Of a stretch of 46,211 nt of DNA, positions 1,506 to 9,006 are shown piece after piece. Both the position numbers and the translations under genes were made by a program. The first letter of the stretch is position 1. Each line of letters begins with the position of its first letter. Origin of the DNA: a bacterium (lineage in GTDB: Bacteria; Patescibacteriota; Minisyncoccia; Minisyncoccales; DAOWIS01); the NCBI GenBank assembly GCA_030640805.1, contig DAOWIS010000007.1, positions 1 to 46,211 of the forward strand, given 5' to 3'. The notes beneath the pieces are model-generated. The model worked only from the letters and a program-made list of their open reading frames with translations, did not search any database and was not told where the DNA came from.

Positions 1506-2044
1506 CACCGACTAAGTTTTTTCTTACCAAAGGAGTGGGAATTCACAAAGAACGTCTTCGTTCTTTTGAGTTAGCTTTAAGAAATGCCGGGATTGCTCAA
1601 TTTAATTTAGTTTCGGTTTCCAGTATTTTGCCTCCCGGTTGTAAAAAAGTTTCCAGAGAAAAAGGTTTAACTTTTTTGAAAACCGGAGAAATAATTTTTG
1701 TAGTGATAGCTAAAAACGAGGCAAATGAACCAAATCGACTTATTGGCGCTTCAATCGGTTGCGCCCTTCCGGCTCAAAGTAATTCCTATGGTTATCTTTC
1801 CGAACATCGTTCTTTTGGAGAGACCGAAGAGAAAGCCAGCGATTACGTTGAGGATTTAGCTGCCTCAATGCTTGCCTCAACTTTGGGAATAAAATTTAAT
1901 CCTGATGATGCTTGGGATTCTCGACGCCAAGTTTTTAAAATGAGCGGGAAAATTGTTTATACTTCCAATGTTACCCAAACAGCCCGAGGACAAAAAGATG
2001 GTCTTTGGACATCGGTCTTATCTGTCGCTGTTTTTATACCATGA
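1502..2044 (+). CDS. pdaD: pyruvoyl-dependent arginine decarboxylase
   Basis: SFELALR.AGI..FNLV.VSSILPP self-cleavage motif; YGYLSEH. Confidence 0.9.
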   Translation: MTPTKFFLTKGVGIHKERLRSFELALRNAGIAQFNLVSVSSILPPGCKKVSREKGLTFLKTGEIIFVVIAKNEANEPNRLIGASIGCALPAQSNSYGYLSEHRSFGETEEKASDYVEDLAASMLASTLGIKFNPDDAWDSRRQVFKMSGKIVYTSNVTQTARGQKDGLWTSVLSVAVFIP

Positions 2045-2081
2045 AGAAATATTTAATGAGAGAAATTTTTTAAGCGAAGAT

Positions 2082-4925
2082 ATGTTTTTTATTCCTAAAA
2101 TTTTTGGCGATGCCAATAAAAAATACTTAAAGAAAACTCAGTCCTTAGTTGATAAGATTAATAACCTCGAATCAAAATTCGAGAGCCAAGCACATAAAGA
2201 TTTATATGCTTGGCTAAAAGAAAAAACTGCCGAACTCAAAGAACGATTAAAAAAAGGCGAAACTCTGGACGATATTCTTCCAGAAGCCTTTGCTTTATTA
2301 AGAGAATCAGCCAAAAGAACTTTAGGTCAGCGACCATTTGATGTTCAGTTGATCGGAGGGATTGTTTTACATCAGGGTAAGATTGCTGAAATGAAAACCG
2401 GTGAAGGAAAAACTTTAGCGGCTACTATGCCGGTTTACCTTAATGCCTTAGAAGGAAAAGGCGTTCATGTAGTCACAGTCAATGATTATTTAGCCAAAAG
2501 AGATACGGTCTGGATGGGACAAATCTATCACTTACTTGGGTTATCAGTGGGATGTATTGTTCATGAAGCTGCCTATTTGTATGATCCGAAATATCAAGGA
2601 GAAAATTCCAAATCACAAATTCCAAATTACAAACAAATTCCAAATTTCAAATCCCAAACTAATCCAAAATCCAAAATCCAAAATCCAAAATCCAAAAATG
2701 GAGAGAGAGATGAAAAAAGGGATTTAGTTGGAGGATTTAAGGTTATTGAGAGCTATCTGAGACCAGTTTCCAGAAAGGAGGCCTATTTGGCTGATATTAC
2801 CCATGGAACCAATAACGAATTTGGTTTTGATTATTTAAGAGACAATATGGCTTATGATCTGAACCAGATGGTTCAGAGGGGATTCAATTTTGTAATTGTT
2901 GACGAAGTGGATTCAATTTTAATAGATGAAGCTAGAACTCCTTTAATAATTTCTGCCCCAGATTTTGAAAGCACCAAAATGTATGGAGAATTCGCCACAA
3001 TTATTCCCCGGCTTAAGGGAAGTATTGATTATAATATTGATGAAAAAATGAAAGCCGCGACCTTAACCGATGAAGGAATTTCCAAGGTTGAAAAAATATT
3101 GGGAATAGAGAATATTTATCAAGAAAAAGGAATAAAAGAGGTTCATCATTTAGAACAAGCCCTAAGGGCTGAAGTTCTTTTTAAAAAAGACAGAGATTAT
3201 GTGGTTAAGCCTGCCCGCAATGCTTCGCATAGCGATGCAGGCGGGGATGATCAAGTAATTATCGTGGACGAATTTACTGGTCGATTGATGCCCGGTCGTC
3301 GTTATTCGGGAGGACTTCATCAAGCTCTTGAAGCAAAAGAAGGAGTTAAGGTTCAACAAGAATCTCGAACCTTGGCGACTATAACTTTTCAAAATTATTT
3401 TCGAATGTATAAAAAGTTAGCCGGAATGACCGGAACTGCTGCCACCAGCGCAGAAGAGTTTTATAAAGTTTATAAATTGGAAGTGATAATTATTCCTACT
3501 AATCGACCGATGATAAGAGAAGATTTTCCTGATTTAATTTATAAAACCGAAAGAGGAAAAATTAAAGCTATAATTAAAGAGATTAAAGAATCTTATCAGA
3601 GAGGACAACCCGTCTTAGTAGGAACGACTTCTATTGAAAAGAACGAAAAATTGGGAGCTTTTTTAGAAAGAGAAGGAATTCCTCATCAGATTTTAAATGC
3701 AAAACATCATGAAAAAGAAGGAGAAATTATTGCTCAAGCCGGCAGACTTAAAGCAGTGACGGTGGCTACTAATATGGCTGGTCGGGGAGTAGATATAATA
3801 TTAGGCGGTAACCCACCTGATTCTAAAGAAGCCGAAAAAGTAAAAAAACTGGGCGGACATTATGTCATTGGAACCGAGAGACACGAAGCCTGGAGAATTG
3901 ACAATCAGCTTCGAGGAAGAACTGGTCGTCAAGGGGATGCGGGTTGTTCCCGATTTTTTATTTCTTTAGAGGACGATTTAGCCAGAATTTTTGGTGGAGA
4001 TAAAGTAAAATTTTTAATGGAACGACTGATTCCCGAAGATCAACCCATTGAAACCAAAATGGTTTCTAAGGTTATTGAATCAGCTCAGGCCAGAATTGAA
4101 GGTTATAATTTTGATTTAAGAAAACATCTTTTGGACTACGATGATGTTTTAAACAAACAAAGAGAAATTATTTATAAGAAAAGGAAAAACGTATTAGAGA
4201 TAAAAGATAAAAGCCAAGAGGCAAGTTTGAGAGAAATAGTTTGGGAAATGATAGAAAAAGAGATTAGAAAAATTTGTGGTTTTCATTTTGCCTCTGATTA
4301 TTCTGAGGATTGGAATTGCGAAGAGGTTAGTGAAATTTTTAAAACAATTTTTCCTGTTCCAGAAAATTTACATAGAAACCTTTTAATTATTAAAGAGGAG
4401 AAAGAAAACCTAAATCTAAAGCGAGAGAAAATAGTGAACTACATTTTTAAGTTAGCTGAGACCGCTTTTTTTAAAAAAGGAGAGGAATGGGGAGAAAAGG
4501 CAGAGCAAATTCAGAAAATAGTTTTACTTAATAGTTTAGATGTTCTTTGGCAGGAGCATATAGATTTTATGGAATATTTAAGAGATAGCGTGAGATTAAG
4601 GGCTTATGGGCAGAGGGATCCTTTGGTGGAATATAAAAATGAAGGTCATCGTGCTTTCAAGAAATTATTGGAAAATTGGCAGAACAGGGTAGTGGGGACA
4701 ATATTTAAAGTATCGTTGCAACAGCCAGTCGCGACATCGCCAATTCAAACCGAGAAACCAACTGAACCTCGTCAATATAATCAGCGGCAATCAGCTAAAA
4801 TCAGCATTGATCAACGTGCCAAGCCTAAGCTTGGCAGAAATGACCCTTGCCCTTGCGGCAAAAAAGACCCCAAAACTGGCAAGCCGATGAAGTATAAAAA
4901 ATGCTGCTATCCGAAATTTGGATAA
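2082..4925 (+). CDS. secA: preprotein translocase ATPase SecA with C-terminal SEC-C motif and repeat-derived insertions
   Basis: AEMKTGEGKT, VDEVDSILIDEARTPLIIS, ATNMAGRG, DNQLRGR, GRNDPCPCG; start taken at ATG 2082 because the longer ORF overlaps pdaD. Confidence 0.98.
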   Translation: MFFIPKIFGDANKKYLKKTQSLVDKINNLESKFESQAHKDLYAWLKEKTAELKERLKKGETLDDILPEAFALLRESAKRTLGQRPFDVQLIGGIVLHQGKIAEMKTGEGKTLAATMPVYLNALEGKGVHVVTVNDYLAKRDTVWMGQIYHLLGLSVGCIVHEAAYLYDPKYQGENSKSQIPNYKQIPNFKSQTNPKSKIQNPKSKNGERDEKRDLVGGFKVIESYLRPVSRKEAYLADITHGTNNEFGFDYLRDNMAYDLNQMVQRGFNFVIVDEVDSILIDEARTPLIISAPDFESTKMYGEFATIIPRLKGSIDYNIDEKMKAATLTDEGISKVEKILGIENIYQEKGIKEVHHLEQALRAEVLFKKDRDYVVKPARNASHSDAGGDDQVIIVDEFTGRLMPGRRYSGGLHQALEAKEGVKVQQESRTLATITFQNYFRMYKKLAGMTGTAATSAEEFYKVYKLEVIIIPTNRPMIREDFPDLIYKTERGKIKAIIKEIKESYQRGQPVLVGTTSIEKNEKLGAFLEREGIPHQILNAKHHEKEGEIIAQAGRLKAVTVATNMAGRGVDIILGGNPPDSKEAEKVKKLGGHYVIGTERHEAWRIDNQLRGRTGRQGDAGCSRFFISLEDDLARIFGGDKVKFLMERLIPEDQPIETKMVSKVIESAQARIEGYNFDLRKHLLDYDDVLNKQREIIYKKRKNVLEIKDKSQEASLREIVWEMIEKEIRKICGFHFASDYSEDWNCEEVSEIFKTIFPVPENLHRNLLIIKEEKENLNLKREKIVNYIFKLAETAFFKKGEEWGEKAEQIQKIVLLNSLDVLWQEHIDFMEYLRDSVRLRAYGQRDPLVEYKNEGHRAFKKLLENWQNRVVGTIFKVSLQQPVATSPIQTEKPTEPRQYNQRQSAKISIDQRAKPKLGRNDPCPCGKKDPKTGKPMKYKKCCYPKFG
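2603..2695 (+). repeat. in-frame heptamer array in secA
   Basis: AAATTCC/AAATCAC/AAATTAC/AAATTTC/AAATCCC then (AATCCAA)x5, encoding NSKSQIPNYKQIPNFKSQTNPKSKIQNPKSK. Confidence 0.9.
3210..3245 (+). repeat. in-frame 36-nt palindromic insertion in secA (PARNASHSDAGG)
   Basis: CCTGC-CCGCAATGC-TTC-GCATAGCG-AT-GCAGG-CGGG interrupts the conserved YVVK-DG.VIIVDEFTGR motif. Confidence 0.85.
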
Positions 4926-4949
4926 ATATCACAAAATACCGTCTATGAG

Positions 4950-4995
4950 TTATCCACAAAAAAGACTTGACAGAAATTAACAGATAGAATAAGAT
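4950..4995 (+). promoter_or_regulatory. DnaA box plus sigma70 promoter
   Basis: TTATCCACA 4950-4958; TTGACA 4967-4972, 17 bp, TAAGAT 4990-4995. Confidence 0.6.
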
Positions 4996-5009
4996 ATAAT
5001 TACTAACTT

Positions 5010-5049
5010 CCCCGTCCCTAGCTTCGGCTAATGGCGGGTTTTTTATTTT
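5010..5049 (+). terminator. hairpin plus T tract upstream of the NYN gene
   Basis: CCCGTC-CCTAGC-TTCG-GCTAAT-GGCGGG-TTTTTT. Confidence 0.6.
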
Positions 5050-5065
5050 ACTAATTTTTGTTAAA

Positions 5066-5650
5066 ATGGAACTAATGACCAAACAGGTAAAAGATAAAAA
5101 CAAAGAACGAGTGATTATCTTTTTGGATGGTAGTAATTTCTATCACCGCCTTAAAGATCCAGAATTAGACCTTAGACAATTATTAGGATTTGATTATAAA
5201 AGATTTGCTCAATGGTTGGCCCATAGACGTCCAATTGTGGATTGTATTTACTATGTAGGTTTGGTAAGAAAAGAACCAGGCAATCCTAAAAGTGAGGAGT
5301 TAGTCAGAAATCAGCAAAGATTATTTGCTTTTCTCCAAAAACAAGATTGGAAAATAAAAACTGGCTATATGATGAAACACGATAAAGATTATAAAGAGAA
5401 AGGTGTAGATGTAAAATTAGCAGTAGATATTTTAGATATGGCTTATCAAGATAAATATAATACCGCTATCATTGTTAGTTCAGATACTGACTTAATACCA
5501 GGCATTATTAGGGCGAAAGAGTTAGGAAAGAAGATAGAATATATTGGTTTTTCACATAAACCAAGTTTTGCTATGCAACGTTACGCTAATTTAAGCCGTT
5601 TATTAAGTAAAATAGAATTAGAACAATTCTTGCCCAAAACACTTCTTTAA
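5066..5650 (+). CDS. NYN domain (LabA/DUF88, PIN-like) protein
   Basis: IFLDGSNFY, EKGVDVKLAVD, IVSSDTDLIP; real start may be ATG 5075 (leaderless). Confidence 0.92.
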   Translation: MELMTKQVKDKNKERVIIFLDGSNFYHRLKDPELDLRQLLGFDYKRFAQWLAHRRPIVDCIYYVGLVRKEPGNPKSEELVRNQQRLFAFLQKQDWKIKTGYMMKHDKDYKEKGVDVKLAVDILDMAYQDKYNTAIIVSSDTDLIPGIIRAKELGKKIEYIGFSHKPSFAMQRYANLSRLLSKIELEQFLPKTLL

Positions 5651-5733
5651 TCTAAAAATTTATTCGGGGATAACGCTCGATCGGACGGAATCCCCGAATA
5701 TATCTATTGATTTCAGAAATCAATAGATTGGAG

Positions 5734-5793
5734 AGTAAAAAAGATCCAGCCACTGGCAAACCAATTAAATACAAAAAGTGTTGTGGGAGATAA
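5734..5793 (+). pseudogene. orphan secA-type SEC-C tail remnant
   Basis: translates to SKKDPATGKPIKYKKCCGR*, versus SecA GKKDPKTGKPMKYKKCCYPKFG*. Confidence 0.75.
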
Positions 5794-5794
5794 G

Positions 5795-6502
5795 ATGAAA
5801 TTTGAACCAAAATTTTATGAAAATTGGAAAGATGGTAATCACTGTCTTCAAGTAGCTGTAATGATGGTGCTTAATACTTTAAATGGCCCTGTTGATTGGA
5901 AAGAAGTTAATAAGATAACTCAATATGAAGATGGTTTATATTCTTGGCCCCCCGCCGCTGTTATTAATCTTGCAGAAAGAATACCTGGTACAAGATTTAT
6001 TAGCACATTTGATTATAAAGACTTTTCAGAATGTGGTGAGGACTATGCTCGTGGATATATGAAGCCAAATTGGTTTAAAGACCAAAAACAACATGCATCG
6101 GAAAACTTTAAGAAAGAACAGACCGCGGCAAGAGGGCTTATGTCCAAGGGTTTGTTTAGAAAAATGAAGATAGGGAAGGGGGAAATTGAGAAATTTCTAT
6201 CCGATCACTTGCTTATTGCCTTAGTCGACGCTGGAAAAATGGCTGATAAAGATTGGATAGCAGGTCATTTTGTTCTTGTATATGGAGAAACTGATGATAA
6301 ATTTTTATTACATGATCCTGGATTACCCTGTCATTCAGCATGGGCAGTGGGCAAAGATCAATTTATGAAGGCATTTCAAGATGAATTAATTATAATTCCC
6401 AATAAGGGTATACGATTTGGGGTCGAGATTAGCAGAAACGATCCCTGTCCATGTGGCTCCAATAAGAAATACAAAAAATGCTGCTATCCGAAATTTGGAT
6501 AG
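5795..6502 (+). CDS. papain-fold peptidase C39-like protein with C-terminal SEC-C motif
   Basis: NHCLQVAVMM (Cys), GHFVLVYG (His), HDPG (Asp); ends RNDPCPCGS.KKYKKCC; ATG 5795 preferred over GTG 5783. Confidence 0.72.
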   Translation: MKFEPKFYENWKDGNHCLQVAVMMVLNTLNGPVDWKEVNKITQYEDGLYSWPPAAVINLAERIPGTRFISTFDYKDFSECGEDYARGYMKPNWFKDQKQHASENFKKEQTAARGLMSKGLFRKMKIGKGEIEKFLSDHLLIALVDAGKMADKDWIAGHFVLVYGETDDKFLLHDPGLPCHSAWAVGKDQFMKAFQDELIIIPNKGIRFGVEISRNDPCPCGSNKKYKKCCYPKFG

Positions 6503-6761
6503 TAGAATTAATAAAAAGTTTTTTTGTTGTAAATTTTTTTAAATTTTTTTTTAAAAAACCTTACCGTTACTATTTAAACCAATTAATTTACTGAACATTT
6601 TCAAGAGACGGTCGTCCCTTAAAAATGTTCGATGATATTTGGAAGTTCAACTTCCTTTTTTTGTTTCGTGTCAATTGTCAACCGTCAAATGTCAATTGTT
6701 TTATGTTCCGTTTCATGATTTATTGTTAAATGTTCAACAATTTGCTAAAATTTAATTAATT

Positions 6762-8114
6762 ATGTCTTCAAGGAATAAAATTAATACTTTTCTTTTTATT
6801 ATTATTGTTTTAGCCATTTTGGGTTTTGGCTTGAGTTATCCTCAAGGATGGAATAGAGGCGCAGATTGGATTAGTCAAAAAACTCATTTTAATCTTTTTC
6901 ATTTTCCCGAAAAACCCTTTAAGTTGGGTCTAGATCTTCAGGGAGGAGTTCATTTGGAATACCAGGCCGCCCTTTCTAATATTGAGCAGGGTGAGCGCTC
7001 TCGGGCAATGCAGGGATTAAGAGATGTCATTGAGAGAAGAGTTAATTTATTTGGCGTAAAAGAGCCGGTGGTTCAAGTGGAGGAAGGTCGTCATCGCTTA
7101 ATTGTGGAACTGGCTGGGATAGAAGATGTCAAACAAGCCATAGAGATGATTGGAAAAACTCCTTATTTGGAATTTAGAGAACAAAAAGAGAATTTTGAAA
7201 AGATTATAGAGTCCAACCAAGAGGCCTTTGAAAAAGGAGAAGCAATAGAGGATCCATTCCAGCCCACCAAATTAACCGGAAGGTATCTTGAAAAATCCCA
7301 ACTCCAATTTGATTCAACTACCCAGCAAGCTTTAGTAGGATTAGAGTTCAATAATGAGGGAGCAAAAATCTTTAAAGAAATTACTGAGAGAAATATCGGA
7401 AAAATTATCGCCATTTATATTGATGGCATTCCTATAAGTTCTCCAGTGGTCAGAGAAGTTATTCCTAATGGCAAAGCAGTGATTGAGGGCGATTTTAGTA
7501 TAGAAGAAGCCAAAGTTTTGTCTCGAAACCTTAATGCCGGAGCTTTACCTGTTCCTATTAATCTAATTTCTCAACAAATGATAGGAGCTTCTTTAGGAAA
7601 GCAATCTTTAGAGAAAAGTTTAAAAGCTGGAACAATTGGTTTGATAGCCGTAGCTCTTTTTATGTTTCTAATTTATAGATTTTCTGGACTTTTAGCAGTA
7701 ATAGCTTTGGGAATTTATATTCTCTTGGTTTTAACGATTTATAAATTAATACCAGTAACTCTTACCTTATCAGGAATAGCAGGTTTTGTTTTATCAATTG
7801 GAATGGCCGTCGATGCTAACATTTTGATTTTTGAGAGAATGAAAGAAGAGAAAAAAGAAGGAAAAGATTTTACCTGTATTATAGAAGAAGGATTTAGAAG
7901 AGCCTGGCCTTCTATTCGAGATGGAAATATTTCTACCTTAATTACTTGCTTTATTTTGTTTTTTATTGGTACGGGTTTTATTCAAGGATTTGCTCTTACT
8001 TTGGGAATTGGGGTTTTGGTTAGTATGTTTTCGGCTATGGTTATCACTAAGAATTTTTTGAAGTGGTTTGAAGGGAAGAAAATGACTAAGTGGAGATGGA
8101 TCTGGACAAGATAA
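6762..8114 (+). CDS. secD: protein translocase subunit SecD
   Basis: LGLDLQGG, IERRVN.FGV.EP, GALP, IGMAVDANILIFER. Confidence 0.97.
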   Translation: MSSRNKINTFLFIIIVLAILGFGLSYPQGWNRGADWISQKTHFNLFHFPEKPFKLGLDLQGGVHLEYQAALSNIEQGERSRAMQGLRDVIERRVNLFGVKEPVVQVEEGRHRLIVELAGIEDVKQAIEMIGKTPYLEFREQKENFEKIIESNQEAFEKGEAIEDPFQPTKLTGRYLEKSQLQFDSTTQQALVGLEFNNEGAKIFKEITERNIGKIIAIYIDGIPISSPVVREVIPNGKAVIEGDFSIEEAKVLSRNLNAGALPVPINLISQQMIGASLGKQSLEKSLKAGTIGLIAVALFMFLIYRFSGLLAVIALGIYILLVLTIYKLIPVTLTLSGIAGFVLSIGMAVDANILIFERMKEEKKEGKDFTCIIEEGFRRAWPSIRDGNISTLITCFILFFIGTGFIQGFALTLGIGVLVSMFSAMVITKNFLKWFEGKKMTKWRWIWTR

Positions 8115-8124
8115 CAAATATTTT

Positions 8125-9006
8125 ATGAATTTCATTAGATATTCCAAAGTTTATTACATCTTTTCAGGGCTGTTGATGATAGCCAGCATCCTGGCTCTTT
8201 CTCTTTGGGGACTTAATTTGGGAATTGATTTTTTGGGAGGAAGCTTGTTGGAAGTAGAATACAAAGAAGAAAGACCAGCCAATCAACTAATTCAAGAAAA
8301 ATTAGAATTTTTAGATTTAGGAGAAATCACTATCCAACCGGTCGGAGAAAAGGGGATAATTTTAAGATTAAAGGATATAGAGGAAAAAACCCATCAAGAA
8401 GTTTTAGCCGAGCTGGAAAACATAGGTCCCTTAGAAGAAAAAAGATTTGAATCTATTGGTCCTGTTATTGGCAGAGAGCTTCAGACCAAAACTATCAGAG
8501 CTATTATTTTGGTTTTTTTGGCTATAATTCTTTATATTGCCTGGGCCTTTAGAAAAATTTCTAGTCCTTTATCATCCTGGAAATATGGAATAGCGGCCTT
8601 AGTGGCTCTATTTCACGATGTCCTTATTACTTGCGGTATATTTGCAGTTCTGGGAAGATTTTTTGGGATAGAAATGGGAATTCCCTTCGTTGCTGCCCTT
8701 TTGACTATTTTAGGATATTCAGTAAATGATAGTATTGTAGTTTTTGATAGAGTTAGAGAAAATCTTATTAAATCTTTGGGAAAAAGTTTTGAAGAAGTAG
8801 TTAATAAAAGTCTAAATCAAACCCTAATTCGTTCTTTAAGTACTTCTTTTACTACTTTTTTAATCCTTATAATTGTCTATTTTTTAGGGGGAGAGACAAT
8901 AAGATATTTCGTTTTAACCCTTATTATAGGAATTATTTCCGGAACCTATTCCTCAATTTTTATTGCTTCGCCAATTCTGGTAACCTGGCTGAAACGAAAG
9001 GGTTGA
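8125..9006 (+). CDS. secF: protein translocase subunit SecF
   Basis: LNLGIDFLGG, ALFHDV, LTILGYSVNDSIVVFDRVREN. Confidence 0.97.
   Translation: MNFIRYSKVYYIFSGLLMIASILALSLWGLNLGIDFLGGSLLEVEYKEERPANQLIQEKLEFLDLGEITIQPVGEKGIILRLKDIEEKTHQEVLAELENIGPLEEKRFESIGPVIGRELQTKTIRAIILVFLAIILYIAWAFRKISSPLSSWKYGIAALVALFHDVLITCGIFAVLGRFFGIEMGIPFVAALLTILGYSVNDSIVVFDRVRENLIKSLGKSFEEVVNKSLNQTLIRSLSTSFTTFLILIIVYFLGGETIRYFVLTLIIGIISGTYSSIFIASPILVTWLKRKG

Follow-up and report, generated by a model that had tools for sequence, protein, structure and literature searches.

Between secA and secD, an uncultured bacterium of the order Minisyncoccales (class Minisyncoccia, Patescibacteriota) carries a block of two accessory genes bracketed by copies of the end of secA. 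This block is a genuine scar of recombination, left at a site of repeated insertion in the part of secA that encodes the C-terminal SEC-C (zinc-finger) tail. The stretch of DNA analyzed, referred to as the window, comprises 46,211 nucleotides (nt) of contig DAOWIS010000007.1 (assembly GCA_030640805.1). The host assembly amounts to 721 kb in 49 contigs and is 97% complete, and the nearest relatives available for comparison were at the order level, none being closer. Taken as a whole, the block is read, with modest confidence, as the integrase-less remnant of nested insertions at an attachment (att)-like site within SEC-C coding sequence. The enzyme and the order of events are what we infer from these observations; the balance tilts slightly toward site-specific tyrosine integrases of tail-targeting elements having made the insertions, with later loss of the integrase.

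A direct repeat at the ends of secA and a peptidase gene

The gene order is secA, a 140-nt spacer, a gene for an NYN-domain protein, two hairpins, a secA-tail fragment, a single nucleotide, the gene of a C39-like cysteine peptidase, a 260-nt spacer, secD and secF (Table 1). An exact 29-nt direct repeat, AAAAAATGCTGCTATCCGAAATTTGGATA, ends both secA (4896–4924) and the peptidase gene (6473–6501), with a spacing of 1577 nt, as the first-pass annotation of this DNA had stated and as the sequence and a repeat scan bore out. When two mismatches are allowed the repeat reaches 36 nt. For the same peptide, KKCCYPKFG, and the codon usage of this genome, the chance of nine identical codons was calculated as 0.0026, and the equivalent secA ends of 20 relatives from the order differed from the 29-mer at 2–10 positions (median 6.5), none of them being identical. 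Genome-wide, 58 exact local direct repeats of at least 20 nt were found within 6 kb, about 20 of which have at least 29 nt; therefore, the repeat is meaningful and non-random, but it is one of several and not unique to this locus.

The integrity of the junctions was examined on assembled contigs and not on raw reads. A Logan contig of 3492 nt from run X1, possibly the source sample, spans positions 4258–7749 with no differences, and contigs from another sample in that study (X2) cover 4874–5112 and 6391–6767, crossing both outer junctions, also with no differences. The misassembly that had been named as a danger was thus ruled against. Three joints considered as rearranged forms were rejected: 4860>6464 and 6456>5767 are canonical SEC-C tails of other organisms, and 5729>6638 traces to a repeat on contig C26.

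The orphan tail and the crossed ends

Between the two outer copies lies an orphan tail, which reads KKDPATGKPIKYKKCCGR followed by a stop at 5737–5793. The stop codon occupies 5791–5793, and the single base 5794 separates it from the ATG of the peptidase gene at 5795. The orphan and its stop had been recognized in the first-pass annotation, with a start at 5734 that included one extra Ser codon. The orphan lacks the CPC half of the motif, its final codons double as the ribosome-binding site of the peptidase gene and, within a frame of 39 amino acids (aa), it matches the SEC-C profile with an E value of 0.078.

In an alignment of 48 nt, 13 positions distinguish the orphan from the present secA tail, 11 of them third codon positions (9 synonymous versus 2 non-synonymous codons, P = 2e-4), and identical runs do not exceed 8 nt. 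Because of this third-position bias, both are taken to have diverged as working secA tails in separate lineages, so that one came from outside. By its codon pattern the orphan is a secA tail from another lineage, in agreement with the proposal that the fragment derived from the secA 3′ end of a relative. The further proposals, that foreign DNA entered by recombination inside SEC-C coding sequence and that secA was left intact, were supported and borne out, respectively.

The ends of the tails in the window are crossed. In the order, 20 of 38 secA tails end with CC[YW]PK[YFW][GDE]-stop, and all ten relatives (10/10) with the insertion type of the window, KxxPxTGxP[MI]KYKKCC, end with CC[YW]PK[YF]G-stop. 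Here the peptidase has the secA-type end KKCCYPKFG-stop, and the insertion-type orphan ends with GR-stop, which matches the boxes adjoining a tyrosine integrase family of the same class. The three tail copies record at least two events of different age. A second split-tail subtype, AxHPDGRP[IM], was present in loci L025, L093, and L132.

The peptidase family and its SEC-C tails

The peptidase is predicted to have a papain-like fold with conserved Cys, His, and Asp residues. Cys17, His158, and Asp174 are invariant in 11 aligned sequences, and the match to PF03412 (25.1 bits against a cut-off of 22) covers part of the profile. A structural model with a predicted local distance difference test (pLDDT) value of 80 retrieved PeiR and the peptidase domains of PCAT1/ComA in Foldseek (E values of 4e-5 to 3e-3, template modeling (TM) scores of about 0.4–0.65). 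Neither a fusion to an ABC exporter nor a transporter beside this stand-alone gene was found. True matches to the family profile were present in 6 of 401 genomes of the class, including this one, and none of the 60 order relatives had the peptidase domain, all of their matches being secA tails. Scans of metagenomes and genomes with the peptidase profile yielded homologues of at most 59% identity, and none closer.

Twelve tail-bearing homologues (39–59% identity) end with C[CH]G[KRGD]-stop or similar, and none of the twelve with [YW]PK[YF]G. The family therefore already had a SEC-C tail, and only the last residues, YPKFG, were grafted in the window. The earlier suggestion that a SEC-C tail had been grafted onto the passenger holds for these secA-type final residues and fails for the whole tail, since the twelve homologues have tails with ends of their own.

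Of the five lineages with a tail-bearing peptidase gene whose context could be used, three (the window, L025, and L051) have this gene just behind secA; tail-less genes take that position in none of nine. A fragment of the distal half of SEC-C directly 5′ of the peptidase start was also found in L036 (..EKYKKCHGM-stop), L025 (KKCRGK-stop), and L051 (KKCHVK-stop), for which the expectation from shuffled sequence is 0.15 occurrences of the motif per 214 kb. L025 has another gene inserted between secA and the peptidase gene, and two further tail boxes bracket it. The homologue in L036 has the insertion-type tail otherwise seen only in SecA. According to a preprint, the SecA zinc-finger domain binds ribosomes and SecB (bioRxiv 10.1101/613315); by analogy, the peptidase tail may serve docking, as this kind of tail does in SecA.

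Recurrent tail duplications behind secA

Among 39 order relatives with a secA tail, secD was found no more than 5 kb downstream of secA in 31. The gap between the two genes was 10–166 nt in 11 relatives (an empty site), was filled by a DUF1614 gene in six, and held unrelated genes in the remainder, such as those for NUDIX, HD, CYTH, Y-family polymerase, IS200-like, Fic, and GNAT proteins, among others. Judged from this distribution, secA adjoining secD is the ancestral order, and the interval behaves as the variable cargo space that had been foreseen.

A class-level SEC-C search, covering 151 genomes, revealed second copies in short frames behind secA. An unbiased sample of 46 class genomes, taken in listing order and analyzable in 43 cases, was also scored for a match of at least 16/18 to the last 45 nt of secA within 3.3 kb downstream on the same strand. 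Duplications of the secA tail were detected in 10 of the 43 genomes, with two on the opposite strand and none with shuffled queries; behind recA, the same test gave 1 in 38. The expected recurrence of tail duplications flanking cargo in other genomes was thus observed. In the order of the window such DNA-level matches were found behind secA in none of 37 genomes, and what was seen there were orphans at the protein level alone (L087, L093, and L094). In L094 (genome G049), a GNAT gene split the secA tail, leaving KKCRYSKYG-stop and the secA terminator downstream.

The duplications vary in extent and in what they enclose. In G080, two copies of the entire motif with its stop, 67 nt without a mismatch and 805 nt apart, enclose an AbiE-like toxin-antitoxin pair; in G073, a 294-nt repeat with 98% identity surrounds five nucleotide-metabolism genes; and in G075, the copies of a 115-nt repeat are just 163 nt apart. 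G117 contains at least six boxes in 2.4 kb, together with a HicAB pair and a 65-aa open reading frame (ORF) ending in a full SEC-C motif. An occupied/empty pair was also identified: L159 has a NUDIX gene and an orphan where the secA of L150 directly meets the same downstream gene, and the L159 orphan aligns to the true secA end of L150. The block of tail, NUDIX gene, and orphan is 87% identical between two families and is sharply bounded by the tail on one side and the orphan on the other.

ORFs of 62–65 aa with little beyond a full SEC-C motif were noted between secA and the next gene in L093 (2385–2573, genome G027) and L125 (about 2530–2730, G117), and they may be new mini-proteins born of duplicated tails. 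A 91-nt orphan-like element derived from G117, with the look of a decayed tail (65–91 nt), was found in 38 of the 401 class genomes, often 0.4–0.9 kb behind secA. It is 81–98% identical across families (L125 3215–3305 on the minus strand, L127 3670–3733 and 4104–4167, L129 about 1380–1440) and sits in or upstream of the promoters of small opposite-strand genes; therefore, some of the presumed boxes there may represent operator half-sites instead of scars. Being absent from this genome and from its order, the element was set aside from the main argument. A rough tally of contig ends close to secA tails gave 7 of about 59, too slight a signal to be used. A hairpin, GAGATGTCAC-N5-GTGACATCTC, stands beside a TTGACT promoter-like box ahead of small ORFs and recurs both inside single genomes and across them (Table 1); its half-site resembles the tail box AAGTGTCATGG.

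Proposed nested insertions and the enzyme involved

According to the reading that we favor, the 1577-bp block would be the fossil of at least two nested insertions, with all junctions within the approximately 60-nt SEC-C coding end of secA. The secA tail would act as the attachment site, and incoming DNA would bring its own distal copy of the tail, so that secA remains whole and the displaced older end is shifted downstream as an orphan box. The outer pair, that is, the perfect 29-nt repeat, encloses the spacer, the NYN gene, the orphan box, and the peptidase gene. The inner orphan box would be an older junction joining the secA tail of another lineage to the GR-stop end of recombinase-side boxes. 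The peptidase would be cargo with a pre-existing SEC-C tail that joined in the recombination and thereby gained the last five residues of secA.

The site is used by elements that carry an integrase. The IMG/VR contig G451 contains secA, a tyrosine integrase 140 nt behind it and an S24 repressor, as in a prophage, and a 49-nt copy of the distal tail (92% identity) is located 37.2 kb downstream on the same strand as secA. Within the class, homologues of the recombinase found beside the peptidase gene in L036 were present in 12 of the 401 genomes. In L036 and its three closest homologues (G169, G197, and G126), the integrase is followed by a SEC-C-like box 0.3–0.9 kb downstream and then by cargo (4/4), such boxes being expected by chance 0.18 times per 31 kb. 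The box ends with GGGAG[AG]TAA, as does the orphan of the window. A small ORF between integrase and box was seen in L036 and G126, and was read as helix-turn-helix with no Pfam match. Directly behind the box, L036 has the peptidase gene and G126 an NYN gene; in G169 this place is taken by an IS200-like gene with flanking hairpins, after which comes a second box. The original idea of an integrase-free hotspot is supported in its recurrent site, and its “integrase-free” part became doubtful in view of the G451 prophage with its 49-nt tail repeat and of the L036-type recombinases with their GGGAG[AG]TAA boxes.

The IS200-like gene of G169 (Y1 transposase family; L316 7761–8500) lies directly behind the tyrosine recombinase; the hairpin GGCTATGCGATAGCC borders it at either end, as do two SEC-C-like boxes. 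L084 has a similar Y1 gene in the secA–secD interval, and G197 has one in the neighborhood of its recombinase.

Several observations weigh against the integrase reading. The window insert contains no integrase, only the NYN and peptidase genes lying between the repeats, and the single PF00589 tyrosine recombinase of the genome is on contig C22 and not on the contig of the window. None of 56 ORFs of 230–480 aa located up to 3.3 kb behind secA in new class loci matched an integrase at E ≤ 1e-10. The secA of G451 is 42% identical to that of the window, so its host is probably from another group. No box was found within 1.5 kb of eight more distant homologues of the L036-type recombinase, and the integrase and box of G169 are 57 kb from secA. 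The window, L036, and G126 have NYN genes that are only remotely related (34% identity over 41 aa, and 21%), and neither close NYN relatives nor the peptidase family were found in IMG/VR viral contigs. Repeats are between 29 and 294 nt long, and the junctions occur at differing positions of the tail, which a single fixed att core does not predict. The insert of L094 gave secA an unrelated new end and the tail was not restored. The 29-nt identity of the outer pair, next to 13 differences in the neighboring 48 nt, needs an extra step, for example conversion or a second hit. The contigs of three runs showed no excised-circle or empty-site joint, although contigs alone say nothing about absence.

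Searches of the viral contigs were likewise negative for the degenerate 29-mer pattern and for close relatives of the L036 integrase. Nine of the viral SEC-C loci were inspected (Pfam on 25 ORFs); one of them, L287, is a secA with an adjoining integrase, and the others resemble, by frame length, the tails of ordinary phage proteins of 200–400 aa.

A broader proposal, which we regard as unlikely while worth stating, is that ultra-small bacteria of the class run a cassette platform that is integron-like yet unrelated to integrons. It would consist of a dedicated tyrosine recombinase acting on boxes that mimic the final codons of the SecA zinc finger; at least two of the four loci also have a small helper ORF. 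Cassettes of toxin-antitoxin, NUDIX, NYN, peptidase, and other genes would gather beside the recombinase and behind secA, the tail of which would be the chromosomal docking site, and because the site is coding, SEC-C tails or parts of them could become fused to the cargo proteins.

Alternative explanations

The first alternative dispenses with the integrase. DNA from relatives would recombine via RecA at the conserved SEC-C stretch, either as small circles of the Campbell type or by exchange of cassettes between tail and orphan box. The genome encodes RecA, ComEC, and DprA, which makes a homology-driven route feasible, and the SEC-C ends of relatives, at 2–10 nt from the 29-mer across families, would offer a good anchor. 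The spread of repeat lengths favors this route, as do the small inserts examined, none of which has an integrase, and the sharp-ended NUDIX cassette shared at 87% identity between two families with its tail and orphan. Against it, the identical runs of at most 8 nt between the orphan and the present tail are too short for RecA exchange between these copies, and the 29 nt shared by the outer pair are at the lower limit for RecA-dependent exchange. The elements that do bear an integrase use the same secA tail site and carry the same type of box. Homology-facilitated illegitimate recombination, a term established in the literature, in which a linear fragment with one homologous end is taken up, replaces DNA instead of duplicating it, and was rejected as the sole cause. 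Overall, the integrase-free route is possible, though we hold it doubtful.

A conserved operon appears improbable. Under this explanation, secA and the SEC-C peptidase gene would be old partners inherited vertically, the 29-nt identity would reflect local gene conversion, the NYN gene would be an unrelated arrival, and there would be no hotspot. The place of the peptidase gene close behind secA in three lineages (the window, L025, and L051) and the contrast between tail-bearing (3/5 lineages) and tail-less (0/9) genes next to secA fit such a partnership, for which a shared docking function is conceivable in view of the binding of ribosomes and SecB by the SecA zinc finger (bioRxiv 10.1101/613315). 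The peptidase family turned up, however, in just 6 of 401 class genomes and 0 of 60 order relatives, each lineage has different genes between secA and the peptidase gene, each beside an orphan box, and the orphan of the window is a foreign secA allele. Tail duplications also flank unrelated cargo in many peptidase-free genomes. Conversion alone would leave unexplained why the match ends precisely with the stop codon while the flanks beyond it are unrelated.

An assembly artefact, in which the 29-nt repeat had joined unrelated pieces of a metagenome-assembled genome in 49 contigs, is hardly credible, since a contig from a second assembler covers the whole block with no differences, contigs from a second sample cross the outer junctions, and 29 nt is below the usual assembly word length.

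Further features of the region

The coordinates of the features are compiled in Table 1.

Table 1. Features of the secA–secD region of the window, and positions of a recurrent hairpin in related loci.
Feature	Position	Strand	Description
secA (ORF)	1953–4925	+	Pfam SecA_DEAD, P-loop_SecA, SecA_PP_bind, SecA_SW
Tail copy 1, distal SEC-C tail of secA	4860–4925	+	Insertion type 4860–4907; 29-mer 4896–4924; TAA stop 4923–4925
Spacer 1	4926–5065	+	Promoter-like site TTGACA-17-TAAGAT 4967–4995; hairpin and T run about 5010–5046
Cargo gene 1, NYN-domain (PIN-like nuclease fold) protein, 194 aa	5066–5650	+	PF01936, 80 bits
Hairpin (5662–5699), then 24-nt palindrome CTATTGATTTCAGAAATCAATAGA (5704–5727)	5662–5727	none	Repeat scan
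Tail copy 2, orphan	5737–5793	+	Insertion-type secA tail KKDPATGKPIKYKKCC, then GGGAGATAA (GR-stop)
Cargo gene 2, stand-alone C39-like (papain-fold) cysteine peptidase, 235 aa	5795–6502	+	Pfam SEC-C 36.9 bits, Peptidase_C39 25.1 bits
C-terminal SEC-C motif of the peptidase	6434–6490	+	36.9–41.2 bits against a cut-off of 20.4; CxC...C[CH] present
Tail copy 3	6473–6501	+	29-mer identical to 4896–4924; gives the peptidase the secA-type end KKCCYPKFG-stop
Spacer 2	6503–6761	+	Terminator-like hairpin GGAAGTTCAACTTCC and T run 6641–6662
secD	6762–8114	+	Pfam; ancestral downstream neighbor of secA in the order
secF	8125–9006	+	Pfam; ancestral downstream neighbor of secA in the order
Hairpin GAGATGTCAC-N5-GTGACATCTC	L125 1331–1360, 1665–1694, 2027–2056; L133 1420; L150 712; L172 1993		

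The real start of secA is probably about 130 nt inside the ORF that opens at 1953, because a gene for pyruvoyl-dependent arginine decarboxylase (1502–2044) terminates within the open frame assigned to secA. The SEC-C motif of secA (4836–4913) is interrupted by an insertion of eight residues, the tail reading GRNDPCPCG-KKDPKTGKPM-KYKKCCYPKFG-stop, and the two tail halves score 14 and 11.4 bits against PF02810, under the Pfam cut-off of 20.4. A run of the heptamer AAAATCC(n) at the start of the contig (1–26) reappears inside secA at 2661–2698, where it encodes a low-complexity insertion (about residues 216–250) that is absent from another SecA compared.

The hairpin of spacer 1 was read by eye and was not called by the hairpin scan; the hairpin motif of spacer 2 recurs elsewhere in the genome. 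The 24-nt perfect palindrome, CTATTGATTTC[CGA]GAAATCAATAGA, has 14 copies in the genome, one at 5704–5727 and the 13 others on contigs C4, C5, C10, C18 (four copies), C26, C32, C42, and C44. The copies are mostly intergenic, and that of the window lies 9 nt ahead of the orphan tail. In appearance the palindrome resembles an operator for a global regulator, or else a repetitive extragenic palindromic (REP)-like element. No Rfam family matched in the window region or in eight related loci, and the composition analysis gave no clear foreign signal.

Implications and comparison with known systems

If the reading of a recurrent insertion site is true, the zinc-finger tail of an essential gene would be a main entry point of accessory genes in genomes of about 0.7 Mb with few classical mobile elements, which would help to explain the variation among such reduced genomes. 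It would also supply a testable mechanism for the exchange of metal-binding tails between unrelated proteins, and the cassette platform, if real, would be a concrete way of explaining how SEC-C motifs have spread so patchily. In practice, secA tails and orphan boxes are easy markers for strain-variable cargo in metagenome-assembled genomes, much of it toxin-antitoxin and nucleotide-metabolism genes. A literature search found no paper naming the 3′ end of secA as an attachment site, the candidate papers that were checked being unrelated.

Compared with integrons (IntI, attI, attC), the loci L036, G169, G197, and G126 are alike in having a tyrosine recombinase, a conserved box, and short cargo units, some with a second box. 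The window differs: it holds no integrase of the IntI type or otherwise, its NYN gene has a promoter-like site of its own, and the boxes derive from a protein-coding tail; no attC structure was seen, nor was one searched for.

In the polymorphic toxin arrays of contact-dependent inhibition (CDI) and Rhs systems, orphan C-terminal modules are displaced downstream. The likeness would be that new 3′ ends with linked genes enter at a conserved coding motif and push older ends downstream as orphans, which keep a short piece of the main gene. In contrast, secA is an essential housekeeping gene, and the end that is swapped is functionally the same and not a variable toxin.

The tyrosine-integrase prophages and islands that occupy the 3′ ends of genes (tRNA, tmRNA, or protein-coding, with attL/attR) share with the secA block the direct repeats, a replaced 3′ end that keeps the target intact, a displaced orphan end, and tandem accretion, and G451 is a real secA example with its integrase. 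Of what marks an att scar, the flanking repeats with a proximal copy completing secA, the empty site in relatives, and the use of the site by integrase-bearing elements were all found, and an integrase in or beside the insert was not. The window insert differs in being 1.6 kb long, in lacking an integrase, and in having its repeat in a zinc-finger coding motif, one copy of which is the working C-terminus of a cargo protein; the lengths of the tail repeats also vary widely between genomes.

Elements known as integrase-less remnants or cis-mobilizable elements resemble the secA block in that small cargo lies between att-like repeats and a recombinase of their own is lacking, and toxin-antitoxin pairs are frequent cargo here too, as in G080 and G117. 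The likeness lies in the repeats and the cargo, and mobilization in trans would be putative for the block between secA and secD.

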